The notes below the pieces were generated by a model, which searched no databases, was not told where the DNA came from, and was given only the letters and a program-made list of their open reading frames with translations. Below are positions 3,394 through 33,301 of a DNA stretch of 64,000 nt, in pieces. The DNA is from Flavobacteriales bacterium (lineage in GTDB: Bacteria; Bacteroidota; Bacteroidia; NS11-12g; UBA955). The stretch is from the NCBI GenBank assembly GCA_947463095.1, contig CANHRE010000002.1:42056-106055 (forward strand). Reading direction: 5' to 3'. The position numbers and the translations under genes are program-made. Within the stretch, counting starts at the first letter, position 1; every line of letters begins with the position of its first letter.

Positions 3394-3426
3394 ACCATTC
3401 TGCGTTTGGCTTGTTAAAAAATGGGT

Positions 3427-3981
3427 ATGAAAATTTACACCCGTAAGGGAGATGACGGCACCACCGGACTGATAGGCGGTGAACGAGTGAAGAAGCACCA
3501 TCTGCGTGTAGAAGCTTATGGAACGGTAGACGAACTGAATTCCCACATAGGGCTGCTGCGTTCATTCAGTGCAGATGAAGGGGTAATGCACGTATTGTCT
3601 GAAATTCAAAATAATCTGTTCACTGCAGGATCCACCCTGGCAACTTCCTCAAATTCCGATTTTGTCATACCTGGTTTAGAAGATTCCGATGTTGACTTAC
3701 TGGAGCGAGCTATTGATCAAATGGACGCTAAGCTCCCAGAATTGAAAAACTTTATCCTTCCAGGGGGGTCAACTGAAGGCGCTCATGCCCACATTGCACG
3801 ATGTGTATGTCGCCGCGCAGAGCGCCTGGTAGTATACCTAAATGAAGAAGATTCAGTGGCAGCGGTAATCATTCAATACCTCAACCGACTGAGCGATTAC
3901 CTGTTTACCTTAGCCCGCTATTTAGACCTCAGCAAAGGCGGAGCCGAGATTACATGGTCTCCCCGCGGTCATAAGAATTAA
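3427..3981 (+). CDS. PduO-type ATP:cob(I)alamin adenosyltransferase
   Basis: MKIYTRKGDDGTTGL... is the hallmark N-terminus of PduO-type adenosyltransferases, and the ~185 aa size fits. The ORF track offers a start two codons upstream (3421). Confidence 0.85.
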   Translation: MKIYTRKGDDGTTGLIGGERVKKHHLRVEAYGTVDELNSHIGLLRSFSADEGVMHVLSEIQNNLFTAGSTLATSSNSDFVIPGLEDSDVDLLERAIDQMDAKLPELKNFILPGGSTEGAHAHIARCVCRRAERLVVYLNEEDSVAAVIIQYLNRLSDYLFTLARYLDLSKGGAEITWSPRGHKN

Positions 3982-11053: not shown

Positions 11054-11152
11054 TAAATTATTTTTATATCTACCTTTTTTACGGTTTTTTATTGCTCTGT
11101 TTTGGGTAATCAGGTATATTTGGCGTTTGAACATTTGAAAAAACACAGACTC

Positions 11153-14100: not shown

Positions 14101-14875
14101 TAGTGCAACGGTTGAGCCCGGAATTCTGCCGAATGTAAACTTTACCATTGAGAACAATTGTTCAGGTAAAGAAATCAATATTGCCAACTTGTCTGATGCA
14201 CCTCAGGGTGAAATCAGGTACGCATGGGATTTCGGGAATGGTAATATTTCTACCGAACGCGTTCCTAAGCCAGTGTATAATATTGCCACATCACGCACCT
14301 TCAACGTAACTCTGAAAGCTCAGGTGCTCGGTGGATGTCTGGATTCTCTGGTGAAAACTGTAACCATTTTCGAATTGCCTAAGTGTGATTTCACCATTAC
14401 CGATATCTACAAGAACGGTAATCGTGCATTCAGCTTCACCCCAGGTGTAACCAACTACAGCTACTACCGTTGGACTTTCGGTGATGGTGGCAACAGCAAC
14501 TTGCCTGCTTCTGAATATCAGTACACTTACGACGGTCCCTTCACCGTAACCCTTACCGCCAGAAACTCAGCCGGCTGCGAGTGCCAGTCTACACGCATCC
14601 TGAATGTATTGAATCTGGGTGTTGATGATGTTGCTGCCGCAGGAATTCGCGTGTATCCGAACCCTGCCAGCGGTATGCTGAATATCGATCTTCCAGTGAC
14701 CGGTTCCAAGATGAGCGTGAGCCTGCTGGATGCAACCGGACGTTTGGTAATGGCCGATCAACTGTATGCAGCCCAGAACAAACTTCATGTAGACAAATTG
14801 CCTGCAGGTTTGTATCAGGTGATTGTAACAGTTGACGGTGCATCAACCACTACCCGCGTAGTGGTAGGTCGCTGA
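11153..14875 (+). CDS. secreted multi-PKD-domain protein with N-terminal discoidin-like domain and T9SS type-A C-terminal domain
   Basis: Signal peptide MNKQLRIKTTWLLALLLMAASGLRAQ. At least five WDFGDG / W[YT]FGDG PKD signatures. The C-terminal ~75 aa (VYPNPASGMLNIDL...GLYQVIVTVDG...) matches the Por secretion tail. The ORF track start at 11102 is probably too far upstream. Confidence 0.8.
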   Translation: MNKQLRIKTTWLLALLLMAASGLRAQVNLALTATPNHSGGGLNSTGYGPSNYNDKVIAAGVFGWVATSGNPSTTSWHEYAWSSPQTIQRIRIYNDATTTRTLTGGTVQVWNGSAFTNVTTFSVAAQMTFDITLPSPQTTTIIRITNHVTSGSQTSNPAIREIEVFGPNRTWDAAVTALSMPGVCGGSRTITATVTNSGRSAWDSVRVGYTVNGALQSNTWLKQRITAGSSANVTFTYNFTTSGNYTIRAFTSRPNNITDSSAANDTLSFATRLFTQPSTARVIDQVQCGSGFPLHKAVKQSGRTIWFDKYYNIFTMAAGDSVYGKTKLFPNGTSPRTYTFDAITLNGISDTFSTSLLNTWSYTGGTSPQQKGYFFDLRTKADMLFTGFDAVISDATQAQYQVEVYYRNGTSSGNYANSSGWVSCGKTSITNTFNAFGSKQPTVRIDINDMFLLSGQTYGFYMVVLDAVQSLRTHCEQTTMTTGNNYVDLVPGALSAVGLFSTTFATGFRPEIRLHIEPGCASSSAATQKITVNPRPIGAESVASKPYKSTRIGTSGFRGAPDVVAHKDTISFELTPPTGYTNAGHGTTWRITSVTARTNNGYTVPVANYTTANPGSTANAKMWFHPSSGMVDSLVNVRITFQDLGPYNCDSTVERWIRVAPRSKPNFTFTSPTCDGQDVAFENLSTVSSGGMDFKWYFGDGDSSDAKNPVKRFKGSGTFKVRLVVTTIPFGYVNDTTINVVVTEIPKVNFTKNNSCEGSNTNFNNTTTYGGSGTVTYSWDFGDGKGKSIVKSPSYRYTTPGGYPVTLTATVNGCAASITKNTYLFHRPKSSFDLPSGKNCAREDATFTNKSTIGAGNVGSLWDFGDGELGTVVNPSHKYATDGSFSVRLIAISEFGCSDTMTKTLVIKEKPKAAFVNGQVCLNKPVSFSNTSQHSSTLNPQYLWRFSDGQTSATKDASRTWTTPGPRKITLILTPFNNCVDSVSATVEPGILPNVNFTIENNCSGKEINIANLSDAPQGEIRYAWDFGNGNISTERVPKPVYNIATSRTFNVTLKAQVLGGCLDSLVKTVTIFELPKCDFTITDIYKNGNRAFSFTPGVTNYSYYRWTFGDGGNSNLPASEYQYTYDGPFTVTLTARNSAGCECQSTRILNVLNLGVDDVAAAGIRVYPNPASGMLNIDLPVTGSKMSVSLLDATGRLVMADQLYAAQNKLHVDKLPAGLYQVIVTVDGASTTTRVVVGR

Positions 14876-16830: not shown

Positions 16831-19800
16831 TCATTCAAACTTCCGCACAAACCGATCTACCATAGAAGGAGCAGCTGTGCGCAGGGTATAATTATCGTTA
16901 CTCACCTTTGGTCCTTCGTTGATGATGCTTTGATTCAGGGCTTCATCGCTAGTCCAGACATAGGTAACGTTCCTCTGGGTGTTCACATATAACCAGGTTC
17001 CGGAGGCAATCTCCATATACAGGAACAGGTTCTCACCACTGCGACGGTGTTCGACCAGCATCTTGGAAGCGAAATTCCTGTTTACGGGTTTACCGTCGAA
17101 GTTGGCCAGGGATAATTCTTCGGTACAAGCCATTCCGCGCTGTTTGCTGTTCCAGCGGAAATCCGCTTTGGTAAAGCAGAACTTCCAGGCGCCTTCATCA
17201 CGGCCTTCCAAAATGCCTGTGCGTTCCATGTTTTTCATCACCGAACGTGCGGTTTTATCATCGGTAATCAGTTCGCCAACCGCTTTTTTTACAAACAGGT
17301 CATTATTGCTAAACGTGCCTTTTCCGGCATCTTCGGCAGTAAGGAGGGCGTAAAGTCGTTCGTTAAAACTCTTGGGAAGCGGGAAATCCAGGAACATGGC
17401 CAGCTCAAAGTTGAAACTGCTGTCGCCTTCAGGAAGGTCTGCGGTACCTGCGCTGATGCACTTGATCACAGAGTTGTCAAATCCGAAATCCATCCGGCCT
17501 TCGGCATGAATGGCATGGGTTTTTTCATTGAACTGGATGAAATTACCCTTCAAACCGCCCTGTAACAGTTTTTCTTTGTTACCTGCGAAGAAGCTGGATT
17601 TCAGATCATCATAATATAGAATGCCGGTGTCACCGGTGATTTCCGGGTCGCTGTAGCGCTTTTTCCAACTGTAAAATAACGGATACACATGGCTGGAATC
17701 GTTTGCAATGTATAAGCCCACATACTGACGTTTATTGTCTTTATCTCTGGGATCATCGGCTTTCAGTATCACCTTTTTAGGGTCAACATAGTCGCTGTAT
17801 CGTATCCAGGCAGAAGGGATGACATTTTTAAAGGTGTGGAGGGGTTTGAAATAGCCGGTAAAAAGCGGATACTTTTCATTGCTGAGCACTTTAATCAGGC
17901 CTTTATAGGCAATCTTGGTATCCAGGGTAAAGTTCTTCGATTCTTCTACCTTGCCCCAGGCTTCCACCTGCTTGTCGCGATTTACCAGAATGCTGTCCAG
18001 GAACAACTCCTGTTTGTAATTCACTTTGTTGATGTACACGTAGTAGCCTTTGGCGCGCATCTTATTGCGGCCGTAAATTTTCGCGTCGCTTCGGTAAATT
18101 TCATGGTATTTATCCTTGCGGTTTGCGGTAATACGGGCACTGTCCACCGGATCCATATCTGCGTCCTTGCGCACGATAACCTTACCATTTTTGAGCACCA
18201 GCCTGGAATCTGCAATGTCTATATGTGGAATGCCTTCTATACGCAGCGCCTCACTGCGCAGGTCATAAATACCCTTTTTCGCTTCAAATCGAAGGCTGTC
18301 CTGGTTCGGATGGGTGCTTACGAACATGGGCGTGATTCCGGCCATAGAAGGTCCGGTTTTAACTTCAATGGCTTTGTTACGGATGTCCCAGCGGTAATCG
18401 CTCATGTTCGTGGCATAACGGTTCCAGGGGAACAGCGTAGGACTTCCCGGGATGTTGTTGGTAAACACACCTTCTCCTTTGTCGAAGTCGAGGGTTCCGC
18501 GTACATGGTCTGTTCTGAAGGCAATCCGTGTGCTGTCAACAGCAAAAATCTGTAGCGCCGATTCCTGTGCGGAAGCTTTGTTGGATCCGAAGGTCATGTC
18601 TTTGCTGGAGTAATTGGCCTCTGACCATTTTAGGATGCCATTGCCCTTCAGCTGCGCCGGAGATTGGGTGATGCTTCCATAAAAGCTATAACCCATTTTA
18701 AACATCCTGATGGGGGCCTCACCGTTGGTGATGGTGAATTTATCCTCGCCGGGCTTCCACTCGGCAGCGGCATTAGCTGCATATACTTCAGGATACTTAG
18801 CATTTTGTGGAAGTTCGTAGCTCTCCACCTGCGCTTTCATCTTGTCGGGAAGGAGCAGAAAGCTGTTCGATTTTGTTTTGCTGCCGCTGTATTCTATGGT
18901 ACCGCTTCCATAAAGCCCTTGTTCACTGAGGGAAATAGCCATATCTCCTTTGCCTTTACCTCGGTACATCGGAAATCCACCGGGTGGGGTATGTGAAATA
19001 AAGCCAAGCGAATAATCCTTTTGGATGCGTGCCTTTTCGCGGAAATCAGGAAAAATTCCATCCGAACGGAAGGTGCCGTCAAAAGCCAGGCCGGAAATGG
19101 TGAAGTTATCCAGACTGTCAATGGTGAAGGGATCTACCTCAAAATAGAATTTTTCTGGTTTATAGGCCCCTCCGTGTATGTAGGATTTTTCATAGGTGAT
19201 GACGCTGCCTTTGTCACTTCTGAAAATAGGATACTCCGCAAAGTTCTGCAATCCGGATTTATTGTTGGGCTTGTCGATGTACAAGGTTCCGTAGATGTTG
19301 CGCAAAACCGATTTAATGGGCACAATGGCTTTACCGCTGCTGTCGGGGAAGTACAGCCGCATGCTGTCAATATTGGTATATAGAATTTGAAATTTGTCGT
19401 AATCAAATTCAAAGTTCTTTCCGAAGAAATCAAAACGACCCGCGCGGATCATGCCGCTGAATTTGAGCCTGCGATTTTCCAGTACGGTAATGATTTGCTC
19501 GGTGGGTAAAGCCACTACGTTTTGAGAATCGCTGAAGTAAAAGCGTTGAACGCCTTCCAGCTTCAATTCATTGGTAAGTAGGTTTAATGTTCCATTCGGC
19601 CTTGCTTCAATCAGTGAGGAAAAGCGAATCACATCATAATCGCGCAGCTTGTAATGGCTTTGGACATAGTTGAACAACTTGGCCCGTATGGTGATCGAAT
19701 CTTCAAAAGGGTTGTACACTATGTAACCACCATCAGCCAGATCAATCAACTGGGCCTCGATATGTTCTTTTGTGTTTTTCAGGTAGGTGGCGTAGTCCTT

Positions 19801-21213
19801 TACAGCAAACTTGGAGCGCTTCTCTTTGGAAAGATTGGTACGGTAGTACTCGGTCATCTTTTCCAGAGGGTTGTAGCGCAGTGCTCCCTGTAGCTTTTCG
19901 TATCTGAATTCTTTAAAAAAACCAGCGGATTCAATTTTGGCGTCCTGATTCTTGTTCACCATGTCGAAGTCCATAAATGGTTCTTCGATGTTCCAGCGCA
20001 GCTGTTGTACATCAATATCCAGCTTGTGGTAATCATCGCTGAAGGGCGCCCGCATCAAACCGGTTACACCCCTCGTTACCAGCAGTTTACCCTCTTTGAA
20101 GTTGAAGTTGAATTGAACTTTTTGATGGTAAATATTCCCTTTGGCACTGTCCGTAATCAACAGGAAGGAACTCTCCAGGCTGGAAGCCGTTCCATTAGCC
20201 ACCTTGAACGATGATGAACGGGCTATAATCTTCTTTTTGCCTTTGAAATAAATGGTGATGACGGATTCTTTCCCCTGGGGATTCACGGTGGTGATTTCTG
20301 CACCGTTAATGGTGAGCCCACCGGTATAGGTAGCCCTGGGCCCCAGCAGGTTTTTTATTTCCAGATCACTTCGGAAGGTACTGAATTTAGGAAAGGAGCT
20401 GGTATTAATCTCGTCAGGATTGCTGGCATAGGAAGCTCGGTCTTCAAAACGACCCAACACCTGCCTACTGAAAAACTTGGGGTATGAAAGCCAGGCAGAA
20501 TCGGCTATATAGCCACTGGTTTGTACATCAGTTTCGTAATGAAACAGTTGAACCTTCATGTTTTCACCCGGCATGGTCCGCTCCCAGCCGGTCATTCCAC
20601 CATTGCCTTTCCAAAGGTTTTTTCCGGGCACATAGGTACCTTCGGTATTCATGATGATCATGCTGTCAAAAAGGGTCCGGCAAATTAGGTCGGTCTTCTT
20701 GAATCGCACTTCAATCTGACCGGTAAACAGGATGTCGAAGTCCATGGACTTGGCATACCAGCGTTTTGCCGGATCGCGGAAAATGGTATTGTCACGGAAC
20801 AGATTATTGGCCAGCTGCAGAAAACTTAGGTATTCGGAGGGGTTTCGCCCCAGCAGGTTGTCCGCAATCTGTTGCCATTGTTGTAAGTTTTTTGCCGGCA
20901 GTTTCCTATATGCAAAGGCATTGAGAGAAGTTAAAACAAGGTTGAAGTAGGGTTTGATGTTCAGACCTCGTTGGATCATGCTGTTGCACAGCTTCGATAT
21001 ATTCTTTTGCTGCACTGCATCAAAGCGCGCACCCCGCCAGTTGTTCAGGAACAATTCCAATTCGGCATCCAGCGGTTTGTCTTCCGCGCTTCTGATGAAT
21101 TGTTCAAACTCCTTAATGAAAATGGCCGGGTCGGGGCTGAAACTTTTTATTTGGCCGCGCAATCCTAATGCGGAAAGGCAGAACATGAAGGCGAGCAGGA
21201 GCGGTCTGAACAT
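16831..21213 (-). CDS. large secreted hypothetical protein (1460 aa)
   Basis: Long uninterrupted ORF with a clear signal peptide (MFRPLLLAFMFCLSALGLRGQ) and no internal repeats or recognisable catalytic motifs. The opposite-strand ORFs inside it are short and low-complexity. Confidence 0.7.
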   Translation of the reverse strand: MFRPLLLAFMFCLSALGLRGQIKSFSPDPAIFIKEFEQFIRSAEDKPLDAELELFLNNWRGARFDAVQQKNISKLCNSMIQRGLNIKPYFNLVLTSLNAFAYRKLPAKNLQQWQQIADNLLGRNPSEYLSFLQLANNLFRDNTIFRDPAKRWYAKSMDFDILFTGQIEVRFKKTDLICRTLFDSMIIMNTEGTYVPGKNLWKGNGGMTGWERTMPGENMKVQLFHYETDVQTSGYIADSAWLSYPKFFSRQVLGRFEDRASYASNPDEINTSSFPKFSTFRSDLEIKNLLGPRATYTGGLTINGAEITTVNPQGKESVITIYFKGKKKIIARSSSFKVANGTASSLESSFLLITDSAKGNIYHQKVQFNFNFKEGKLLVTRGVTGLMRAPFSDDYHKLDIDVQQLRWNIEEPFMDFDMVNKNQDAKIESAGFFKEFRYEKLQGALRYNPLEKMTEYYRTNLSKEKRSKFAVKDYATYLKNTKEHIEAQLIDLADGGYIVYNPFEDSITIRAKLFNYVQSHYKLRDYDVIRFSSLIEARPNGTLNLLTNELKLEGVQRFYFSDSQNVVALPTEQIITVLENRRLKFSGMIRAGRFDFFGKNFEFDYDKFQILYTNIDSMRLYFPDSSGKAIVPIKSVLRNIYGTLYIDKPNNKSGLQNFAEYPIFRSDKGSVITYEKSYIHGGAYKPEKFYFEVDPFTIDSLDNFTISGLAFDGTFRSDGIFPDFREKARIQKDYSLGFISHTPPGGFPMYRGKGKGDMAISLSEQGLYGSGTIEYSGSKTKSNSFLLLPDKMKAQVESYELPQNAKYPEVYAANAAAEWKPGEDKFTITNGEAPIRMFKMGYSFYGSITQSPAQLKGNGILKWSEANYSSKDMTFGSNKASAQESALQIFAVDSTRIAFRTDHVRGTLDFDKGEGVFTNNIPGSPTLFPWNRYATNMSDYRWDIRNKAIEVKTGPSMAGITPMFVSTHPNQDSLRFEAKKGIYDLRSEALRIEGIPHIDIADSRLVLKNGKVIVRKDADMDPVDSARITANRKDKYHEIYRSDAKIYGRNKMRAKGYYVYINKVNYKQELFLDSILVNRDKQVEAWGKVEESKNFTLDTKIAYKGLIKVLSNEKYPLFTGYFKPLHTFKNVIPSAWIRYSDYVDPKKVILKADDPRDKDNKRQYVGLYIANDSSHVYPLFYSWKKRYSDPEITGDTGILYYDDLKSSFFAGNKEKLLQGGLKGNFIQFNEKTHAIHAEGRMDFGFDNSVIKCISAGTADLPEGDSSFNFELAMFLDFPLPKSFNERLYALLTAEDAGKGTFSNNDLFVKKAVGELITDDKTARSVMKNMERTGILEGRDEGAWKFCFTKADFRWNSKQRGMACTEELSLANFDGKPVNRNFASKMLVEHRRSGENLFLYMEIASGTWLYVNTQRNVTYVWTSDEALNQSIINEGPKVSNDNYTLRTAAPSMVDRFVRKFE

Positions 21214-23280: not shown

Positions 23281-23994
23281 TTAGAACAGCATACTGCACT
23301 CCAGGGAGCAATTGCGTATGGTGCCATTGTTTCCTGTGGCCGGGGTTACATCCGGGATGTTAAAGTTGTTGTTGGTGTTGATGAGTCCCATCCTAAGGCT
23401 TACCATAAATGAGGAGCGTTCACCACCGTATTCCCAGGCGGCCATAGCGCATAAATCGAAAGGTTTCAGCGGTAGATTTTCCCAGCGTTTCCACCAAATC
23501 TGATAATTTTTGGGAAGGCGTTCCGGGCCCACATAGATGGCTGAGCGCATCAGGTAACTCCCCTGGAAACCTAGCAGGATGTTATTGCCCAGGTCTTTAT
23601 TTGATTTTCGTTCCAGGTTAAACTTCCATAGAACCGGAACATCAAGAAAGAGTTCAGATATTTTAGTGTAGTCGGAACTTTGCTGGAAGTTGGAAAAATT
23701 CGCACCGGCAAATCGCGCCGAAATTTCGGTATATACCCAATGGGGTTTGGAACGTGAAAGTTTCTTTTGCAGGAACAATCCACCTGCATAGCCGAACAGT
23801 GGCCGCGGGTTGCTTAATTCTGTGCCCAGCATGCTGTATAAGCCTGCGCCCAGCCGGAGTCCGAAATTCTGACGTCGGAAATCCTCTAACTGTTCCTGAT
23901 CGGCGAGGCCGCCCTCATCGCGGCCCTGAGCCTGAAGGTTGGCGCCTGAACAGCATAACAAGCTAAGCAGGACAAAGGGGAGGTAAGGTTTCAT
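23281..23994 (-). CDS. outer-membrane beta-barrel (porin-family) protein
   Basis: Signal peptide MKPYLPFVLLSLLCCSGANLQAQ with alternating hydrophobic beta-strand pattern and a C-terminal F. The ATG at 23994 is 2 nt after the upstream Hsp70 gene stop, so the two are probably co-transcribed. Confidence 0.55.
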   Translation of the reverse strand: MKPYLPFVLLSLLCCSGANLQAQGRDEGGLADQEQLEDFRRQNFGLRLGAGLYSMLGTELSNPRPLFGYAGGLFLQKKLSRSKPHWVYTEISARFAGANFSNFQQSSDYTKISELFLDVPVLWKFNLERKSNKDLGNNILLGFQGSYLMRSAIYVGPERLPKNYQIWWKRWENLPLKPFDLCAMAAWEYGGERSSFMVSLRMGLINTNNNFNIPDVTPATGNNGTIRNCSLECSMLF

Positions 23995-23996
23995 GG

Positions 23997-25865
23997 TCAA
24001 AGTTTTTTTCCTTTCAGGGCAGCGCCTACAGCTTCATCCATCAGTCGTTCAGCGAAGGGGCGCGTATAATCATTCAAACGTTCCATGGACGCCAGTATTG
24101 CATCTTTGTCTTCTTCGGAACACAGCGTTTCCAATTCTCCGCATAATTCAAGCGTTTTATGATGTTCTTCAGGGGTAAGCAGTTGATGGTTCTTTTCCAG
24201 AAATCGCTTCGCTGTGTAGCACAACTGCCGGGCTTCTGTTTGCGCTTCTATCATCAAGCGCGTTTCTATATCGCTTTTGGCGTTGTTCAGGCTGTCCAGC
24301 AGCATATCTTCAACTGCCTTATCATTGAGGTCTTTTTGGTAATGCACGGAGATTTCCTGAGCAATGCCGCTGCGCAGTTCCCGGGCACCCACCTTTAAAA
24401 TCCCGTCGGCATCAACCAGAAAACGCACCTCTATTTTTGGAAGGCCTGCGGGCATTGCAGGAATTCCTTTTAACTGGAACGAAGCAAGTTTGCGGTTTTG
24501 TGCACACAATTCACGCTCGCCCTGAAAGACGGATATCTCCATATTCACCTGGCCATCAACGGAAGTGGTATATTGCCTGGAGGCACTGGATGGGATGCGG
24601 CTGTTTCTTGGAATGAGTGTGTCCATGAGCCCGCCCAGGGTTTCAATACCAAGGCTCAGGGGTGTTACATCCAGCAACAGAATATCGCGCCGGTTGCCCG
24701 CCAGGATGTCGGCTTCCACGGCGGCACCCAGAGCCACCACTTCGTCGGGGTTCAGGCTGTCGTTCACATGCACTCCGGAAAAGAATTGGCGTACCTTGTC
24801 TTTTACCAGGTTCAGGCGTGTTGAGCCACCTACCAGTACAACTTCATGGATTTGCTCCGTTTTTATACCGGCATCATGCAGCGCCTGTGACGCGATATTG
24901 ATGGTTTTATCAAGAATGGGCGTGCACAGCTGTTCCAAATCGGTGTTGCTTAGGCTCAGTTTCAGTGATACACCATCAAGCTGATCTTCACGCAGGTAGT
25001 GTTTAGCGGTGCCGTCAGACAGCATGATTTTGGCTTCTTCTGCAAACAGCCGCAATTGTTGCATATGTGCCTTTTTCTTCATGTGCTGAGCTGCTTCCGG
25101 CATTAGTTGCAGCCAGAAATCTACGATGGCACGGTCTATATCGTCACCACCAAGCCAGGTGTCCCCTCTGGTAGCCAACACTTCGAAAACGCCGCCTTCA
25201 AGGCGTAAAATAGAAACGTCGAAGGTGCCGCCGCCAAAATCATATACGGCAATCATTCTGTTTTGCGCTGGCGACTGACCCAGCCCGTAGGCCAGACTTG
25301 CGGCAGTGGGTTCATTTAGAATCCGCATCACATCCAGACCAGCCAGTTTTCCGGCCTCCCTGGTAGCCTGTCGCTGAAGGTCATCAAAATAGGCTGGTAC
25401 GGTGATAACTGCTTTGCGAATGGAAGTACCCAATGCTTTTTCTGCCCTCAGCTTTATTTCCGAAAGGATGGCAGCACTAAGCTCTACAGGGCTGTAATAA
25501 GTACCCTGTGATTCGATGCGCACATGTTCACCCTGTTCGTCTTCAACAATTCTGTATCCGAAATAGGCGTTGCGGTCTCGCAGATCCTTATACGAGCGAC
25601 CCAACAGACGTTTTACACTGTAAATGGTGCGTTCCGGTTCGTGAACCAGAAATTCTTTGGCGGCATTCCCCACCAGCATCTGTTCCGTTCCCAGGTAAAC
25701 CACGGAAGGCACAATCACCCCTGAGGCTCCGTCAAGACAAACCGGGTTTCTGTTATCGCCCTTGCACACGGCCACCAGGCTGTTGGTTGTTCCCAGGTCA
25801 ATCCCAATGATCAGGTCATTGGGTACCAGTTCCGCTTTTTTCAGGTCAATGCTGATTTTTGTCAT
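23997..25865 (-). CDS. hscA: Hsp70-family chaperone, HscA-like
   Basis: 622 aa with actin-like ATPase motifs (IGIDLGTTNS, DLGGGTFD, VLVGGSTR) and an HscA-like C-terminal substrate-binding domain. Confidence 0.8.
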   Translation of the reverse strand: MTKISIDLKKAELVPNDLIIGIDLGTTNSLVAVCKGDNRNPVCLDGASGVIVPSVVYLGTEQMLVGNAAKEFLVHEPERTIYSVKRLLGRSYKDLRDRNAYFGYRIVEDEQGEHVRIESQGTYYSPVELSAAILSEIKLRAEKALGTSIRKAVITVPAYFDDLQRQATREAGKLAGLDVMRILNEPTAASLAYGLGQSPAQNRMIAVYDFGGGTFDVSILRLEGGVFEVLATRGDTWLGGDDIDRAIVDFWLQLMPEAAQHMKKKAHMQQLRLFAEEAKIMLSDGTAKHYLREDQLDGVSLKLSLSNTDLEQLCTPILDKTINIASQALHDAGIKTEQIHEVVLVGGSTRLNLVKDKVRQFFSGVHVNDSLNPDEVVALGAAVEADILAGNRRDILLLDVTPLSLGIETLGGLMDTLIPRNSRIPSSASRQYTTSVDGQVNMEISVFQGERELCAQNRKLASFQLKGIPAMPAGLPKIEVRFLVDADGILKVGARELRSGIAQEISVHYQKDLNDKAVEDMLLDSLNNAKSDIETRLMIEAQTEARQLCYTAKRFLEKNHQLLTPEEHHKTLELCGELETLCSEEDKDAILASMERLNDYTRPFAERLMDEAVGAALKGKKL

Positions 25866-26031
25866 GATGCCCGTGCAAAATTACCCCATGTACCTACACA
25901 TCAGGGCGCAAATTGTTTGTGTTTTTCGTTGAATAAATCTTTATCGAAATTCATCTGATGCGAGTCAGAAACTTCCTTTATAGGATGCTTGGTAATCCAG
26001 ATGGGTATAATTTCGCCTCGCTTTTCTCACC

Positions 26032-27321
26032 ATGTTTCGCGTAAAAACAACATTCCTTGCAGTGTGCTGCATGTTTATGTCTGCCACTGCTGCTACAGCT
26101 CAATGGGTCAATGATTCTATCCAGATGGGTACGGGTTACCGCAATGAAGTTTTCTATTCGCTGGGGGGCGGCACCCGAGGCACCACTCCGGTTGTTGACT
26201 GGGAACTTGCCCATACCCAGGTGAAGATGGACAACTGCATCCGCGCCAACCACGTAGCCGGTGTTCGGGTAATTCTATATCCCAAAGGCGCCATCGCCGA
26301 CTGGAATAAATTTGATACGGCCGGCTGGCAGTCATGGCGCATGGTATTCAACAACATCAACAAACGCGAATTGGGCGCATTTAACCAACAGAAAGGTCCG
26401 GGCATGTGGGATTTTAACTGGGGGATTTATAATTCTTCAACACATGAGGTAGTGGGTGATTCTATGTACCTCCTGATTTTAAATGCAAGCAGCCCAACGC
26501 AAATTTTTCGCAAATTTTATCCTGTGAAACAGGATGTGTCCGGAAACCTGCAACTCCGCATTTCGGCCCTTGATGGCACAGGCGATACTACCATGAACGT
26601 GCTCAGTGCTACAGCCGGAACCCGTGCCTATAAATATGTCCATCTTCAGAAGAAAACACAACCGCTGAGAGAACCGGCGGAATCATGGGATGTAGTGTTC
26701 ACCCAGTATTTCGCACCCACCTTTGACCCTATGAGTGGTAAAACCATTCCTTATCCGGTGATGGGGGTTGAAGCCAACCAAGGTGTTCTGGTTGCTGCCA
26801 TCCGTGGCGTGGAACGTAGTGCAATAGATCCGGGTAACTGGAAGAGCCAGGCAGCAGATGACCTGACGGGCATTGGTTCCAATTGGAAATCATTTAACAG
26901 GAGTACGAATAAATTCACCTGTAAAGACAGCCTTTCTTATCTGGTGAAATCAGTTGATGGCCAGTACTGGCTGTTGTATTTCTCCCGCTTTGATGGCAAT
27001 GCCACCGGCAAAATTATATTTCACAAGCAACAAACCAATCTTGCTTCCGTACAGGGTTTTGGCAATACCCTCAAGTTGAGCCTCTATCCTAATCCTGCAA
27101 TTCCCGGACGCGCTGTAGTGCTAGCCACCGATGCCTCCGGGCATCGCGAAGTGAAGCTACAAATCACCGATGCTGCAGGAAGAACTGTGTACACTGCGAA
27201 CCGCACCCTCAAGGGTCTAGAGCAACAGGAACTGCCTACTGTGGGCCTGGGTTCTGGTAGTTATTTCCTCAGTCTTACTGCAGAAGGAAAGAAAGCGGTC
27301 ATTCCATTCCTGATTCCTTAA
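26032..27321 (+). CDS. HmuY-like secreted protein with T9SS type-A C-terminal domain
   Basis: Signal peptide, HmuY-like motifs (EVFYSLGGG...VVDWELAH; ESWDVVFTQY) and a C-terminal ~80 aa Por secretion tail (LSLYPNPAIPGRAVVL...GSYFLSLTAEGKKAV). It is a paralogue of the 29571 gene and lies directly upstream of the TonB-dependent receptor. Confidence 0.6.
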   Translation: MFRVKTTFLAVCCMFMSATAATAQWVNDSIQMGTGYRNEVFYSLGGGTRGTTPVVDWELAHTQVKMDNCIRANHVAGVRVILYPKGAIADWNKFDTAGWQSWRMVFNNINKRELGAFNQQKGPGMWDFNWGIYNSSTHEVVGDSMYLLILNASSPTQIFRKFYPVKQDVSGNLQLRISALDGTGDTTMNVLSATAGTRAYKYVHLQKKTQPLREPAESWDVVFTQYFAPTFDPMSGKTIPYPVMGVEANQGVLVAAIRGVERSAIDPGNWKSQAADDLTGIGSNWKSFNRSTNKFTCKDSLSYLVKSVDGQYWLLYFSRFDGNATGKIIFHKQQTNLASVQGFGNTLKLSLYPNPAIPGRAVVLATDASGHREVKLQITDAAGRTVYTANRTLKGLEQQELPTVGLGSGSYFLSLTAEGKKAVIPFLIP

Positions 27322-27336
27322 AATCCATTAACAGGG

Positions 27337-29592
27337 TTGCTAAGGGCCATCCTCATCACGTGCTTAGTCAGCGTTGCTGCAGTTCTTCCTGCGCAGCAGC
27401 CTGTACAGGTGTGCGATCTGGCCACTGGTCAACCCCTGGAAGGGGCGCAGGTTCATATCAGCGCTTCGGCGGAAAACAGCCGGCAGGCCTACCGCTCCAA
27501 TGCCGGGGGTATGGTGACCATAAACATCGAAAACCGGCAAATACTTCAGGTATATATGCCCGGGTATGCTGATTGGGAGGGGATGGTAACCGGTTCATCC
27601 GATACCTTCAGGGTGCGCTTGCAGCCGCTTGACAGCAGGTTGGATCCGGTTGTCGTTACAGCACTCACAGCGCCTGCTGCGGGGTCGCGTTCGGCCAATA
27701 ACATCAGGGTGATCGGCAGGCCGCAGATGGAACAACTTGCTGCGCAGAACCTCTCGGAATTACTGGCTAACGAGGTAAATTTCAACCTCGGACAGGACGC
27801 CGTGATGGGCACAAGCGCCATCATGCAGGGTATTTCCGGACAGAACATAAAGGTAATGGTGAATGGAGTGCCTGTGCTTGGTCGTTTGAATGGAAACATT
27901 GACGTTTCGCAAATCAACCTGAGCAATGTTGAGCGGGTTGAGATTATCGAAGGACCTATGTCGGCGGTTTACGGAACCGATGCGCTGGGCGGGGTCATCA
28001 ACATCATCACCAGGAATGCCGGCAAACGCGGTACCAATGCGGATGCTCATATTTATGCCGACGGACTTCGCAACTTCAACACGGATCTTACGGTGCAGCA
28101 TCGGGTAAACAGGAAGCTGGCGTTGAGTTTGAATGGTGGTCGTTACTTCTTCGGAGGTATTGATTTTAATCCACAGGATCGGCCATTTGACTGGAAACCA
28201 AAGCTGCGCCAATTTGCCGAAGGAAACCTGTTCTTAAAAACCGGAGCATGGTCGCACCGATTCCAGACACAGATATTCCGGGAGCGTTTGAACGATCGTC
28301 AAGCTGCCGAATACAGCAATACCGGAATCACCGGGTATAACCATATTTACCATACGAACCGCGACGGCATACAATGGCAGGCAAATATTCCCCTGAAACG
28401 GCAGGTAAAATTGGAATTCCTGCAATCATGGCAATTATTCGGAAGGGATAAAGAAGTTATTCGGCGTAACCTGGTAGATGGCACCGAGCGCGACCTGACG
28501 GCATTTCTGGGAGATCAGAGTTTGTTCAGTCATTGGATGTTCCGCGGCTTCGCCGCACAATCCAGACCTTGGGCGAAAATTCAATGGATGGCAGGGTATG
28601 AGGCCAACTTTGAGCAAGGAACCGGGGATAATATTCCTAAGAATTCCCCCGGCATCAGCGATGTTGCACTGTTTGGTGTAGCCGATTACAAGCCTGTAAA
28701 GCGCCTTTTGCTGCGGCCCGGGCTGCGATTGATCTATAACAACCGATTCGGAAGCCCTCTGGGAAATGAAGGTATTCTATCAAAAGTAAAGCTGGCACCG
28801 GTGATTCCTTCGCTTCAATGGAAGTGGGACTTGTCCTCCCACATGTTATTCCGCGGGGCTGTAGCGGCAGGGTATAGGGCGCCGGGTCTGAAAGAACTTA
28901 ACCTGTTGTTTGTGGACAACCAGCATAATGTGCGTGGTAATGAGCAACTGAAGGCTGAGCAGTCCATCAATTATAATATCGGGCTGGATTACCGAAGGCC
29001 ATTGCTGAGGAAACAAGCCTTCCGATTCGACTATGCTATTTTCCAGAATCAGATTCGCAACCGAATCACGCTCGCACTGGTAGATCCCTTAACAAATCTG
29101 TACACCTATATCAACGTGGGCAGCTTCCAAACACAGGGCATGAGCATGAATGCCGGCTTCATGCATCCCCGTTACAGCATGAATGCCGGCTGGTCCACTA
29201 TTGGTATTCGCGATGATTTGGACGGCAGCGGTTTAAAAGGGGACCGCTACTTCTACTTTACACAATTTCGATTGAATCTGGGCTGGACCCCGGCCCGTTC
29301 CGGCTGGAGCGTGAATCTGTTTCAGAAATACAGCGGGAAAACCCGTGGTTACAATGCGGATCGCACAACCTATACCATTCAGGATTTCTGGATCAGCGAT
29401 GTGGTTCTTTCCAAACAATTGTTGCAGCAACAGTTACGTATCAGTTTCGGTTGTCGAAATGCGCTGGGTATAACTTCAATCCAGTCTAACCGGATTTCCG
29501 GTGGCATTCATGCGGTGAATAACGGCGAGCAATTGGTTTCGCCCGGCAGACAGTTTTTTATTCGATTAACATGGCAAGTTCAGGGAAAATAG
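27337..29592 (+). CDS. TonB-dependent outer membrane receptor with N-terminal carboxypeptidase-regulatory-like domain
   Basis: Signal peptide and a CarbopepD_reg-like beta-sandwich (VCDLATGQPLEGAQVHISA...). The plug domain carries the VERVEIIEGPMSAVYGTDALGGVINIITR box. A ~500 aa barrel ends in an aromatic-rich C-terminus. Confidence 0.85.
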   Translation: MLRAILITCLVSVAAVLPAQQPVQVCDLATGQPLEGAQVHISASAENSRQAYRSNAGGMVTINIENRQILQVYMPGYADWEGMVTGSSDTFRVRLQPLDSRLDPVVVTALTAPAAGSRSANNIRVIGRPQMEQLAAQNLSELLANEVNFNLGQDAVMGTSAIMQGISGQNIKVMVNGVPVLGRLNGNIDVSQINLSNVERVEIIEGPMSAVYGTDALGGVINIITRNAGKRGTNADAHIYADGLRNFNTDLTVQHRVNRKLALSLNGGRYFFGGIDFNPQDRPFDWKPKLRQFAEGNLFLKTGAWSHRFQTQIFRERLNDRQAAEYSNTGITGYNHIYHTNRDGIQWQANIPLKRQVKLEFLQSWQLFGRDKEVIRRNLVDGTERDLTAFLGDQSLFSHWMFRGFAAQSRPWAKIQWMAGYEANFEQGTGDNIPKNSPGISDVALFGVADYKPVKRLLLRPGLRLIYNNRFGSPLGNEGILSKVKLAPVIPSLQWKWDLSSHMLFRGAVAAGYRAPGLKELNLLFVDNQHNVRGNEQLKAEQSINYNIGLDYRRPLLRKQAFRFDYAIFQNQIRNRITLALVDPLTNLYTYINVGSFQTQGMSMNAGFMHPRYSMNAGWSTIGIRDDLDGSGLKGDRYFYFTQFRLNLGWTPARSGWSVNLFQKYSGKTRGYNADRTTYTIQDFWISDVVLSKQLLQQQLRISFGCRNALGITSIQSNRISGGIHAVNNGEQLVSPGRQFFIRLTWQVQGK

Positions 29593-30611
29593 CCACGCGG
29601 TTTCCGAACTTTGCCGTTGTGAATCAATGGCTCATTCCGGTAACTATGTTGATCATGCTGGCATCATGTGAGCCCGAAGAAGCGTTGTACCCCGCACCAA
29701 AACAAATCCAGGGAATTCAGACCAAGGTGCTGGACATGGGGGAGGACCGCAACAGGGATGTGTGGGTACAGTTTTCTACCAACAACGCCATATCCACAGA
29801 CGGTTCTGTGTGGGATCTGGGTTTCTCCTGTCTTCCAGGTCGCTGGGATATAGTAATCAACAACGGCAATGATGCCTATGTGTTTCGTGGCGATACCGGC
29901 AGTTTATCGCGTATGTTTACAATTCCCGTTGGCGGATGGAAGTATGATCATCCGGGAGGCAATCCCGATTCCAGCGGCGTAGGTTCTTGGTCGCCCGACG
30001 GAAGCAGTAGTTTTGGCTATTGTTATGTTTTGGACCGAGGCATGAATCAACCTGCCGATGAGCGCTATGTCAAATTCAAGCTGGGCCGAGTGGAAAACGG
30101 AGGTTATATGCTGTCCTACGGAAATCTCGACGACAGCGCACCCCGTCAGGTGAAGATTTCGAGGCTGAGCGGCAAAAACTACGCGTACTTTAGTTTTCTG
30201 CGCGGCGATACCGTACACGCTGAACCGCTAAAACAGGATGGCTGGGATGTGGTTTTTCGGAAGTATAAAACCAATATCATTGAAACAGGAACCGGAATTC
30301 CATACGACTATGTGGCCGTCGGATGCTTGTTGAATCCATTGAACACCCAATGCGTTGAAGTTCCGGACAATACCCCTTTTGAATCGGTAAACAAGACTTT
30401 CGCCGCTTCGTTAATCATGTCAGGCAGGCTGGACGGCATTGGATATGACTGGAAATTATTCGACCGTTTATCTGGAAAATATACGGTGAACTACAAACGC
30501 ATCTTTGTTATACGAACCAACAGGGATGAGTTGTTTAAACTCAGGTTTACAGACTATTACAACGATTTGGGCCAACGGGGCTATCCCAAATTTGAATTCG
30601 AGCGACTTTAA
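29571..30611 (+). CDS. HmuY-like lipoprotein
   Basis: Lipobox MLASC. HmuY-family motifs (VWVQFS, SVWDLGFS...RWDIVIN, DGWDVVFRKY). It overlaps the receptor 3' end by 22 nt. Confidence 0.55.
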   Translation: MASSGKIATRFPNFAVVNQWLIPVTMLIMLASCEPEEALYPAPKQIQGIQTKVLDMGEDRNRDVWVQFSTNNAISTDGSVWDLGFSCLPGRWDIVINNGNDAYVFRGDTGSLSRMFTIPVGGWKYDHPGGNPDSSGVGSWSPDGSSSFGYCYVLDRGMNQPADERYVKFKLGRVENGGYMLSYGNLDDSAPRQVKISRLSGKNYAYFSFLRGDTVHAEPLKQDGWDVVFRKYKTNIIETGTGIPYDYVAVGCLLNPLNTQCVEVPDNTPFESVNKTFAASLIMSGRLDGIGYDWKLFDRLSGKYTVNYKRIFVIRTNRDELFKLRFTDYYNDLGQRGYPKFEFERL

Positions 30612-30630
30612 GTGCAATTTCGCGGTTTGT

Positions 30631-31758
30631 ATGAGAAGCCGTTATTCGTTGATGATTGCCCTTATGTTGCTCATGCCCTCGTGTTTCATGGTGAAGTCGG
30701 GCAAAAGCGCAAAGCAACCGATATTGCCTGAAGCGGCATTGCCGGCAATTGCCGAATATGCCAAAAGGACACCCGCACCCGGAGAGCAACATTTCAAGTC
30801 GCTGTATCAGTTGTCCTTTGGCGGTGATAATGCAGAAGCCTACTGGAGCCCTGATGGCAAACGGCTGACCTTTCAACGTTCTGATGCCTCTCATAACATC
30901 CCCTGTGACAGGATTTTTTCTGCCCCATGGGAGTTGCTTACCGATTCAAACTACCAGCCGGAGCTCATCAGCAACGGGCTGGGTCGTACCACCTGCTCCT
31001 ACTTTATGCCCGACGGCAAACACATCCTGTATGCCAGTACCCATGAAGGCGGACACAGCTGTCCTCCGGTTCCCGGAAGCACGGGCGCCTATGTGTGGCC
31101 TGTGTATTCCAGCTACGACATCTACATAGCCGATTTGAAAGGCAACATCACCCGCCAGCTTACCAAAGAGCCAGGATATGATGCAGAGGCTACTGTGTCA
31201 CCAGATGGTACACATATTGTGTTTACCAGCGACCGCAGTGGCGATCTGGAACTATGGATTATGGACACTGCCGGACAAAATCTGAAGCAGCTTACCAGTG
31301 GCCTGGGATATGATGGAGGTGCATTCTTTTCTCCCGATGGAAAGAAGCTCGTCTTTCGTTCCAGCAGACCTAAAACCGAAGAAGAAATTGCCCGCTACAA
31401 GGAATTGTTGTCTAAAGGTCAGGTGGAACCCACCCGCATGGAACTGTATACCGTAAATACTGACGGCAGTGAACTGCAGCAGATTACCAATTTGGGCAAG
31501 GCCAACTGGGCGCCATTTTTTCATCCCTCCGGCAAGAAAATTATCTTCAGCAGCAACCACAAGAGTGTGCGAGGCTATGACTTCCAGTTATACATGATTC
31601 ATGCCGACGGCAGCGGCCTGGAACAAATCACGTTTGAAAGCATTTTCAATGCCTTCCCCATGTTCTCACCCGATGGAAAATACCTGGTGTTCAGCAGCAA
31701 CCGGAATAATGGAGGCACACGTGCCACCAACATCTTCGTTGCCGAATGGCAGGATTGA
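30631..31758 (+). CDS. PD40/TolB-like beta-propeller repeat protein
   Basis: Signal/lipobox (LMPSCF) and repeated SPDGK / FSPDGK[KY]LVF blades. ATG at 30631 assigned as start from the signal sequence. Confidence 0.7.
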   Translation: MRSRYSLMIALMLLMPSCFMVKSGKSAKQPILPEAALPAIAEYAKRTPAPGEQHFKSLYQLSFGGDNAEAYWSPDGKRLTFQRSDASHNIPCDRIFSAPWELLTDSNYQPELISNGLGRTTCSYFMPDGKHILYASTHEGGHSCPPVPGSTGAYVWPVYSSYDIYIADLKGNITRQLTKEPGYDAEATVSPDGTHIVFTSDRSGDLELWIMDTAGQNLKQLTSGLGYDGGAFFSPDGKKLVFRSSRPKTEEEIARYKELLSKGQVEPTRMELYTVNTDGSELQQITNLGKANWAPFFHPSGKKIIFSSNHKSVRGYDFQLYMIHADGSGLEQITFESIFNAFPMFSPDGKYLVFSSNRNNGGTRATNIFVAEWQD

Positions 31759-31846: not shown

Positions 31847-32800
31847 ATGATGAGGGTATACTTCAGAAAACAGAACAAGGTGCTGAAGGTGCCGCGTCTT
31901 TCCGAATTGGAAAAACTGGACGACATCATTTGGATTGATTTACAAAATCCTACGCCCGATGAATTACGGGATGTAGAAGAGCATTTCGAAATTCGATTTC
32001 AGAGCAAACAGGAACAGGCTGAGATTGAGTCGTCTTCCCGCTATTTTGAAACGGAGGAAGAAATCATTGCCAATACCAACTTCCTACAGGTGGACGCCAG
32101 CCAGCAGGCAGGTTTCAGCAGCAACGGCGTGTCATTTATACTCCAGAACGAAACCCTCTTTACCTACAGGGAAGCTGATTTGGCAAATTTTGCAGAATGT
32201 GTTCGGAAGATTAAAGCTTCGGGAAGGGCTTTTGGGTCCGGAAAGAAAATTCTGGTGAGCTTATTTGAAACCGGAATTGATACCGATGCGGACATCATTG
32301 AAGGTATATCACGCAACATTGTGGCCCTGGGCCGTGAATTGAGTTTTTCGGGTAGTACCGACGAGAAGCTCATTCTTCAAATCAATCGACTGCTCGATGA
32401 TACCATGATGCTTCGTCAGAACATCATCGATAAACAGCGCGTAGTTACGGCCATGTTGCGTTCCCGTGACTTTGAGGGCGCTGAGGTGGAGCGACTGCGC
32501 ATCCTGATTAAAGACGTGAATTCGCTGTTGGACCATACCACGTTCAATTCTGAACGGTTGGAGTATTTACAGGATACCTTTCTGGGTCTGATCAATATTG
32601 AACAGAACAAGATCATCAAGATTTTTACTGTAGCCTCGGTGATTTTTATGCCGCCAACACTCATAGCCAGCATCTATGGGATGAATTTTAATGCCTTTCC
32701 CGAACTAAACTGGAGGTATGGATATCCTTTTGCCATCCTGTTGATGTTGTTGTCTTCATTTACCACTTTATACCTGTTCCGTAAGAAAAAGTGGCTTTGA
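31847..32800 (+). CDS. corA: CorA-family magnesium/cobalt transporter
   Basis: C-terminal two-TM domain with the GMNF signature (YGMNFNAFPELNW). ~317 aa. Confidence 0.85.
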   Translation: MMRVYFRKQNKVLKVPRLSELEKLDDIIWIDLQNPTPDELRDVEEHFEIRFQSKQEQAEIESSSRYFETEEEIIANTNFLQVDASQQAGFSSNGVSFILQNETLFTYREADLANFAECVRKIKASGRAFGSGKKILVSLFETGIDTDADIIEGISRNIVALGRELSFSGSTDEKLILQINRLLDDTMMLRQNIIDKQRVVTAMLRSRDFEGAEVERLRILIKDVNSLLDHTTFNSERLEYLQDTFLGLINIEQNKIIKIFTVASVIFMPPTLIASIYGMNFNAFPELNWRYGYPFAILLMLLSSFTTLYLFRKKKWL

Positions 32801-32815
32801 GTTGTTACTCTGAGC

Positions 32816-33301
32816 ATGAAGGCACAGTTTCTTTCTTTTTTATTCTTCTTCGGAATTAACGCCGACTACACTCTTGTTCGCCAAACCTACCTGAAGGCGG
32901 TGAACAGCGAAGCGGATGCCTTACAACTGGAAAAGTTGACGCAGGCTCAGGCCGCTGCCGATGCGGTGATTCAGGCCTATTATGGTTCAGCGCTGGCGCT
33001 GAAAGCCAAGTTTAGCTATAATCCCTACAACAAGGTGGTTTATGTTCGCTCGGGGTCAGCGCAACTAAACGCCGCCGTGAACAAGTTTCCCCAGCATACG
33101 GAGATCCGCTTCCTGCGTTACAGCGTAGAATACAATACGCCATCCATGGTTGGAATTTCCCTGCATCTGGCCGAAGATAAAGCCTTCATATTGTCCCATC
33201 CGCCGATGCGCGCACATGCGCTGTTTCAAAGCATTAAAGGCTTCATGCTGCAAACCTCCGGCCTGAGCGAAGCCGAAAAGAAACAGATTAACGCCTGGTA
33301 A
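32816..33301 (+). CDS. hypothetical protein
   Basis: 161 aa ORF with a hydrophobic N-terminus and no recognisable motifs. Confidence 0.4.
   Translation: MKAQFLSFLFFFGINADYTLVRQTYLKAVNSEADALQLEKLTQAQAAADAVIQAYYGSALALKAKFSYNPYNKVVYVRSGSAQLNAAVNKFPQHTEIRFLRYSVEYNTPSMVGISLHLAEDKAFILSHPPMRAHALFQSIKGFMLQTSGLSEAEKKQINAW

Follow-up and report, generated by a model that had tools for sequence, protein, structure and literature searches.

Two HmuY-like paralogues with different export signals bracket a TonB-dependent receptor in a three-gene module of environmental Bacteroidota

Here, we describe a locus at positions 26032-31758 of a 64,000-nucleotide stretch of DNA from a Flavobacteriales bacterium (contig CANHRE010000002.1; the whole stretch is referred to below as the window). 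In this locus, a gene for a TonB-dependent receptor is bracketed by genes for two paralogous HmuY-like proteins, one of which ends in a type IX secretion system (T9SS) sorting domain, while the other belongs to a family with a lipobox and a surface-export motif. These three genes are the unit conserved across related genomes. We propose that they form an outer-membrane capture and import module, in which the T9SS paralogue relays a ligand, most likely haem or a porphyrin, to the lipoprotein and the receptor, and we hold this proposal as a whole to be modestly probable. An initial annotation of the window had placed four genes here on one strand, in the order HmuY-like, receptor, HmuY-like and PD40. 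Domains and coordinates both check out, the four open reading frames (ORFs) lying head to tail as follows.

26032-27321, + strand: HmuY-like paralogue with predicted export by T9SS; 429 amino acids (aa), with a signal peptide, a two-part HmuY-like body and a type-A C-terminal domain (CTD)
27337-29592, + strand: TonB-dependent receptor; 751 aa, with an N-terminal extension, a plug and a 22-strand-type barrel
29571-30611, + strand: HmuY-family lipoprotein paralogue, predicted at the surface; 346 aa, with the lipobox LASC and a two-part HmuY-like body
30631-31758, + strand: PD40 (TolB-like) beta-propeller lipoprotein; 375 aa counted from Met43, the ORF opening at 30505

A gap of 15 nt separates the T9SS paralogue from the receptor, the start of the lipoprotein gene overlaps the receptor stop by 22 nt, and 19 nt lie between the lipoprotein stop and the Met43 start of the PD40 gene (30631).

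A scan of one genome per species yielded 80 related loci, to which six were added by exact-protein look-up; ORFs were labelled with profiles, and counts were made over 84 loci. All 80 scanned loci come from metagenome-assembled genomes of uncultured Bacteroidota from lakes, rivers, groundwater and digesters, Lentimicrobiaceae and Chitinophagaceae bins included. Of 77 testable loci, 75 have the receptor gene directly after that of the T9SS paralogue, and 65 of 68 have the lipoprotein gene after the receptor. This triad persists at 28% identity, in three distant members that were looked up (L087, L089, L090). The near-constant adjacency of T9SS paralogue and receptor argues for a physical or functional partnership. 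The PD40 gene, which had been counted as part of the locus, comes next in only 41/66 loci and does not extend beyond the nearer clade; rather than a member of the core, it is an accessory specific to that clade.

The sorting domain of the upstream protein, as originally annotated, is borne out. Residues 351-424 match Por_Secre_tail above threshold (31 bits for PF18962, where the cut-off is 27; 30.5 for TIGR04183, where it is 23), and the CTD of an AlphaFold2 (AF2) model, whose predicted local distance difference test score (pLDDT) is 83, superposes in Foldseek on the T9SS CTD of mirolase with a TM score of 0.76 and a root-mean-square deviation (rmsd) of 2.3 Å. The type-A domain spans residues 351-429 (nt 27082-27318), at the extreme C-terminus, and is kept in 25 of the 27 closest homologues according to precomputed Pfam matches; one of the two homologues without it is a 247-aa partial sequence. 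At the other end of the protein, a signal peptide can be read from the sequence (MFRVKTTFLAVCCMFMSATAATAQ, then W), ending in ATAAQ. In Bacteroidota, signal peptides are typically followed by a Gln after the cleavage site, a rule that Gln24, invariant in 28 sequences, fits. The host organism probably uses T9SS, since three other CTD proteins are encoded within the window, with type-B CHU_C domains at 4826-9709 and 51481-53949 and a type-A Por_Secre_tail at 11102-14875, all on the + strand. These three are large PKD-repeat proteins. No genes for the T9SS machinery itself lie within the 64-kb window.

The initial annotation stated that HmuY in Porphyromonas and Bacteroides is a lipoprotein and not a T9SS cargo; this holds for Porphyromonas only. 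In Flavobacterium columnare, HmuY (C6N29_01035) combines an HmuY superfamily domain with Por_Secre_tail and is reported to be secreted by T9SS (PMC9618737), so a T9SS tail on an HmuY-domain protein already has precedent. The tailed architecture is in fact common. When the CTD was left out of the profile, an exhaustive search for the wider family gave 2035 cluster representatives at E <= 1e-3, of which 723 reached E <= 1e-30; among the best 150, most are 400-450 aa long. In a Pfam scan of 64 members, comprising 56 of the longer class and eight of about 330 aa, Por_Secre_tail was found in 55, type-B CHU_C in one and HmuY (PF14064) in 46.

Both flanking proteins had been annotated as HmuY-like. 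For the 346-aa lipoprotein the assignment stands on a direct match to Pfam HmuY (PF14064; 50.4 bits against a cut-off of 27), but the T9SS paralogue does not reach this model at E <= 0.1. Its kinship is indirect, running through the lipoprotein paralogue, the PF14064 matches of the wider family and the Foldseek matches of its body (about residues 24-340) to PinO (probability 0.99) and BVU_2192 (0.98). Structure prediction points the same way for the lipoprotein, whose AF2 model (pLDDT 88) has the HmuY-type all-beta fold: its ten best Foldseek matches in the PDB are all HmuY-family proteins (BVU_2192, PinO, Tfo, BF2707, BfrB, HmuY; probability 0.98-1.0). The best PDB match of the lipoprotein family by sequence is BfrB (E 4.9e-9).

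BLASTP aligns only the C-terminal halves of the two flanking proteins (25% identity, E 9e-7). Comparison of profiles with hhalign, using 28 sequences of the T9SS family and 53 homologues of the lipoprotein, extends the alignment to 291 columns (99.9%, E 3.3e-35), which on sequence grounds makes the two proteins full-length paralogues, far beyond chance. Half-profiles of the two families also align N to N (97%) and C to C (99.7%), and within the lipoprotein family the N and C halves align to each other (92%, E 6e-7). Each paralogue contains two copies of the HmuY hallmark (…Y/F-S-L/F … W-D-h-h-F …), as EVFYSL…WELAH and KYVHL…WDVVF in the T9SS paralogue and as VWVQFS…WDLGF and YAYFSF…WDVVF in the lipoprotein. 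Foldseek alignments cover about 320 columns against targets of about 185 residues, with rmsd values of 15-20 Å, which fits a two-domain query. Each paralogue thus probably holds two diverged HmuY-like halves; for the T9SS paralogue, we make this claim because of its full-length alignment to the lipoprotein family.

The lipoprotein carries the lipobox LASC, and its Cys33 is invariant across 53 homologues. Nearly all of 67 orthologues continue the lipobox as C-[EF]-K-[DEP]-[DE] (E-K-[DEP]-E or F-K-[DE]-[DE]), giving the consensus C-x-K-[DE]-[DE]; the protein in the window reads C-E-P-E-E at this site. Lauber and co-workers reportedly defined, in 2016, K-[DE]-[DE] after the lipidated Cys as the export signal of Bacteroidota lipoproteins. 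The family consensus matches this signal, and surface exposure is therefore predicted, as for HmuY itself. The two different export routes that had been proposed for the paralogues are upheld in their signals: the upstream protein bears a T9SS type-A CTD, the downstream one a lipobox together with a motif for surface export.

Within the narrow clade to which the T9SS paralogue of the window belongs, His61, His74, Arg71 and Asn73 are invariant and Cys69 is nearly so (W-E-L-A-H-T…D-N-C-I-R-A-N-H). Position 61 is Phe in the wider T9SS family, and the residues peculiar to this clade are also missing from the lipoprotein paralogue. Such a private set of N-domain residues would suit a T9SS paralogue that is not a shuttle but an independent surface protein, for example an adhesin, or a scavenger keeping some resource from competitors, placed beside the receptor only through shared regulation. 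Adjacency to the receptor is, however, near-universal, and the order is constant across families down to 28% identity. We regard independence from the receptor as quite unlikely.

The receptor matches the Pfam families Plug and TonB_dep_Rec_b-barrel, and its N-terminal CarboxypepD_reg-like extension matches weakly. It reaches no NCBIfam equivalog threshold: the TonB-B12 (96 bits), siderophore (93) and hemin (88) models all score far below their cut-offs, and on the plug only. Measured as a possible BtuB, it scores 96 bits against 600 with TIGR01779 (TonB-B12) and 88 against 836 with NF007926. Against solved receptors, a profile of 17 orthologues scores 144 bits with CirA, 132 with XusA, 117 with BtuB, 104 with PfeA/FepA, 83 with PhuR and 67 with ShuA. 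The metal-substrate class given in the initial annotation is thereby retained, the nearest solved structures being CirA, XusA, BtuB and PfeA/FepA and not SusC-like glycan importers. By its profile, the receptor belongs among metal-chelate and corrinoid receptors, a placement that does not single out haem. Its barrel contains YRAP, 13 residues, His530, 4 residues and NEQL. The pattern [FY]RAP-13-His530-4-N-x-x-L is invariant in the 17 orthologues down to 27% identity, with P516, H530, N535 and L538 all invariant. In HmuR, the corresponding series is YRAP-10-His434-5-NPDL. A FRAP/His/NxxL arrangement has been described for haem and haemoglobin receptors (PMC9331221), and for haem the signature in this receptor is only supportive.

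These features suggest how the module might work. The two-domain HmuY-like protein would cross the inner membrane via Sec and then be exported by T9SS through its type-A CTD, to be released or tethered at the surface. There, it may bind a small ligand that is hydrophobic or carries a metal, haem or a related porphyrin being the likeliest candidate, and pass it to the lipoprotein paralogue, which would be surface-exposed and docked at the TonB-dependent receptor. The receptor would import the ligand with TonB energy. The lineage of the window has gained, downstream of the triad, a PD40 propeller lipoprotein that probably faces the periplasm. By family precedent, haem or a porphyrin is the most probable ligand, with odds that are about even. 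All of the best PDB matches of the lipoprotein are haem or porphyrin binders of the HmuY family, and in F. psychrophilum the haem-binding HfpY acts together with the receptor HfpR (PMC9331221). We also count in favor of the relay the iron-related genes that neighbor the triad, namely hscA, divergent upstream in 47/68 loci, and flavodoxin, upstream in three relatives.

A number of observations weigh against this reading. The initial annotation proposed haem or another tetrapyrrole or metal as the ligand, a claim that the binding residues do not bear out: when the C-terminal halves are aligned by hhalign with HmuY (a sequence 100% identical to 3h8t), His134 of HmuY is opposite a gap and His166 pairs with a position that varies between Arg and Phe, and neither the lipoprotein family nor the wide T9SS family has a conserved His or Met column, while several Tyr are conserved. 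This pattern is not decisive against a porphyrin, because the HmuY family includes not only bis-His, bis-Met and His-Met haem binders but also BfrB, which binds through porphyrin side groups without iron coordination (PMC12106395). Another member of the family, BfrC, binds neither haem nor protoporphyrin IX (PPIX) (PMC12106395). The receptor profile favors catecholate and B12 receptors (CirA, XusA, BtuB, PfeA) over PhuR and ShuA, and FRAP/NxxL-like boxes are widespread in TonB-dependent receptors, many of them without the His. The 64-kb window contains no HmuS-type chelatase, haem oxygenase, or periplasmic or ABC transporter; HmuS (a CobN-like chelatase) and HmuTUV are absent from the annotated related loci as well. 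No Fur box is found upstream of 26032: the best match to GATAATGATAATCATTATC is 11/19, equalled or exceeded by 295/500 shuffles, although Bacteroidota Fur sites may differ from the consensus. Related loci match this consensus at 9-14/19. Deletion of hmuY in F. columnare gave no growth phenotype under iron limitation (PMC9618737). Finally, the two-domain interpretation is based on sequence profiles and is backed by internal alignment for the lipoprotein family only (the 92% given above), the N half of the T9SS family aligning to its own C half at only 8%.

It is also possible that the architecture and relay are as proposed but that the ligand is not a porphyrin, the HmuY-like fold having been re-used as a general surface binder; the ligand might then be a ferric chelate (for example, a xenosiderophore of the catecholate type), some other metal complex or a small nutrient of an unrelated kind. 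The unconserved axial ligands and the behavior of BfrC speak for this as well, as do the nearest solved receptors, CirA, XusA (a xenosiderophore receptor, 9gbc) and PfeA/FepA. The genes downstream vary by clade and are of peptidase type, with either the PD40 propeller or, in L059, L062, L064, L070 and L089, an M28 peptidase, which also fits. Yet for PF14064 members, experiments have shown no ligands other than haem and porphyrins (PMC9331221, PMC12106395), the His between the FRAP and NxxL boxes of the receptor is invariant, and no siderophore biosynthesis or esterase genes are linked. A non-porphyrin ligand is therefore possible but on the doubtful side. A further alternative is a widespread, unrecognized two-stage relay of environmental Bacteroidota whose ligand is not classical haem, such as a metal-free porphyrin or the tetrapyrroles of chlorophyll or haem breakdown in fresh water. 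The lipoprotein would then act as a lid on a CirA/XusA-like receptor, and the His61/His74/Cys69 site of the narrow clade might confer a specificity of its own. We consider this version unlikely.

Corrinoid (vitamin B12) uptake was hinted at in the initial annotation, owing to a PduO adenosyltransferase in the window; the HmuY-like proteins and the propeller would then take BtuG/BtuH-like roles around a BtuB-like receptor. TonB-B12 is indeed the best NCBIfam match of the receptor, BtuB is among its top PDB matches, and a beta-propeller lipoprotein near a receptor recalls BtuG. But the 96 bits of TonB-B12 against a cut-off of 600 are no better than the scores of the siderophore and hemin models, and the propeller lacks a surface-export motif and is missing from 25/66 loci. 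The PduO-type gene (3421-3981) is real and lies 22 kb from the locus, behind unrelated genes for a nucleoside transporter, SRP54, large T9SS cargo proteins, triose-phosphate isomerase and GcvT. Rfam models reveal no cobalamin or other riboswitch, either across the window at the gathering score or, at E <= 1, between 25500 and 32000, and no btuF/CD genes lie nearby. HmuY, for its part, goes unmentioned in the BtuH paper (0 occurrences). Given the distance of PduO and the lack of a riboswitch, we think corrinoid uptake very improbable, and the hint is best set aside.

The PD40 protein contains six repeats (173.6 bits in Pfam). Its true start is probably Met43 (30631), since the resulting 375 aa are in line with orthologue lengths of 347-371 aa. 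A stem-loop of 7 bp with a T-rich tail (30622-30642, + strand) spans this likely start codon; terminator-like matches in the region occur at shuffle expectation, and the stem-loop may be due to chance. We considered TolB proper as an identity for the protein and rejected it, the TIGR02800 equivalog scoring 145 bits where the cut-off is 343; its neighbors include no tol-pal genes. A lipobox-like LLMPSC is followed by basic residues, and orthologues are either K/R-rich after the Cys or have no lipobox. Because the acidic export motif is missing, the protein is probably periplasmic. A role as a surface lid like BtuG or XusB was likewise rejected, on the missing motif and on the absence of the gene from 25 of the 66 loci.

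The region upstream of the triad, and the genes on either side of the locus, are as follows.

25866-26031, + strand: intergenic promoter region between the divergent hscA and the T9SS paralogue, with a -7-box-like element and a palindrome
23997-25865, - strand: HscA-type Hsp70 (NF003520, 665 bits against a cut-off of 620), divergent from the locus
23281-24000, - strand: OMP_b-brl_2 protein of 239 aa, after HscA; the pair lies upstream of the triad in 47/68 loci
31847-32800, + strand: CorA (TIGR00383, 240 bits against a cut-off of 200), after the PD40 gene
32816-33301, + strand: 161-aa protein without a family match, after CorA

The consensus of the -7-type promoter element of Bacteroidota is TAnnTTTG. 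An element of this kind, TAATTTCG, is present at 26008-26015, and an upstream alignment of nine close relatives keeps TAATTT[CT]G/TAAATTCG about 20-35 nt before the ATG. Of 81 related loci, about 50 have TAnnTTTG no more than 45 nt from the start codon. A scan for sigma-70 promoters and terminators gave counts equal to shuffle expectation. The palindrome, TGATGCGAGTCA, is at 25956-25967, and TGAYnnnnGTCA is kept in the same alignment. In about 16 of the 81 loci, from several clades, this motif (often TGACAAATGTCA) occurs between hscA and the T9SS paralogue, where about 0.5 would be expected by chance. Its positions are -65 in L003, L012 and L013, -83 in L008-L011, -102 in L027, L033 and L037, and -63 in L051, L053 and L055; L081 has it also. 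The palindrome is a candidate operator, although it could instead serve the divergent hscA.

As regards neighboring genes, the divergent HscA-type Hsp70 is confined to the nearer clade and has neither hscB nor iscU for a neighbor, an unusual setting for HscA. The CorA gene and its 161-aa partner also follow PD40 in L003, L008, L009 and L011-L013, with RecO in this place in more distant relatives; the pair seems to reflect lineage synteny and not membership of the system. A 1459-aa ORF at 16831-21213 (- strand) has no Pfam match at E <= 1e-5, and a 1475-aa orthologue, likewise without a match, occupies the same position in L003. In lineages without PD40, an M28 peptidase with PA and PDZ domains lies downstream of the triad (L059:12844-14685, L062:6532-8322, L064:12601-14442, L070:12491-14278, L089:10544-11752), and L059, L062 and L064 have the flavodoxin upstream. 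The peptidase and flavodoxin hint at proteolytic ligand release and a context of iron limitation. Seventeen Lentimicrobiaceae/Bacteroidales loci have, on the same strand and directly upstream of the T9SS paralogue, a single-pass membrane protein of about 120 aa (for example, L057:7397-7765, L059:7347-7712, L063:7416-7763 and L084:7485-7847). It has an invariant I-N-F-H-Q-H-H-I-x-G (INFHQHH), a C-terminal L-R-A-P-P and no Pfam match, and may be a fourth, histidine-rich component in those lineages. Peripla_BP_2 and FecCD genes are seen about 6 kb upstream of the triad in L001, L002, L004 and L005; the window has neither.

Work on HmuY-type hemophores has dealt almost exclusively with host-associated anaerobes and with pathogens of fish. 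In our case, the HmuY fold is duplicated in a fixed three-gene module found across many uncultured freshwater, groundwater and bioreactor Bacteroidota, with the T9SS route predicted for one copy and lipoprotein surface export for the other. If the proposed relay is true, it would link T9SS to TonB-dependent micronutrient uptake outside polysaccharide use, and would provide a testable model for the competition of free-living Bacteroidota over haem or iron bound to porphyrin.

Among known systems, HmuY-HmuR of P. gingivalis (hmuYRSTUV) likewise places the gene for an HmuY-family all-beta binder beside that for a TonB-dependent receptor, with one partner a surface lipoprotein, and HmuR shares the YRAP...His...N-x-x-L arrangement of the receptor described here. 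Mature HmuY, however, is a single protein of about 190 aa, whereas the window encodes two binders, each of about 320 aa with two HmuY-like halves; one of these bears a T9SS export domain, His134 and His166 are unconserved, and there is no hmuSTUV. By its published description, HmuY of F. columnare (C6N29_01035) has the same domain pair and export route as the upstream protein of the window; unlike our locus, it is described with no flanking receptor or lipoprotein paralogue, nor with haem binding, and its deletion has no in vitro phenotype (PMC9618737). HfpR-HfpY of F. psychrophilum also pairs a receptor with an HmuY-family hemophore outside the anaerobic oral and gut Bacteroidota, with 1:1 haem binding and induction by iron limitation, but its operon is receptor-DoxX-HfpY, with a single binder and no T9SS-tailed paralogue described (PMC9331221). 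In BtuB-BtuG and XusA-XusB of Bacteroides, a surface lipoprotein catches the ligand before a small TonB-dependent receptor takes it over, and XusA is among the solved receptors nearest to ours. BtuG and XusB are, however, beta-propellers and not HmuY-like, and the propeller of the window (PD40) has no surface-export motif and lies outside the core. The combination seen here, two tandem-domain paralogues with different export routes bracketing a receptor, is not described in the literature searched. It does not amount to a new principle: TonB-dependent receptors supplied by secreted or surface binders are familiar, and there is an earlier report of an HmuY secreted by T9SS. The parts themselves, an HmuY-type binder, a TonB-dependent receptor, a T9SS cargo and a surface lipoprotein, are all of known kinds.

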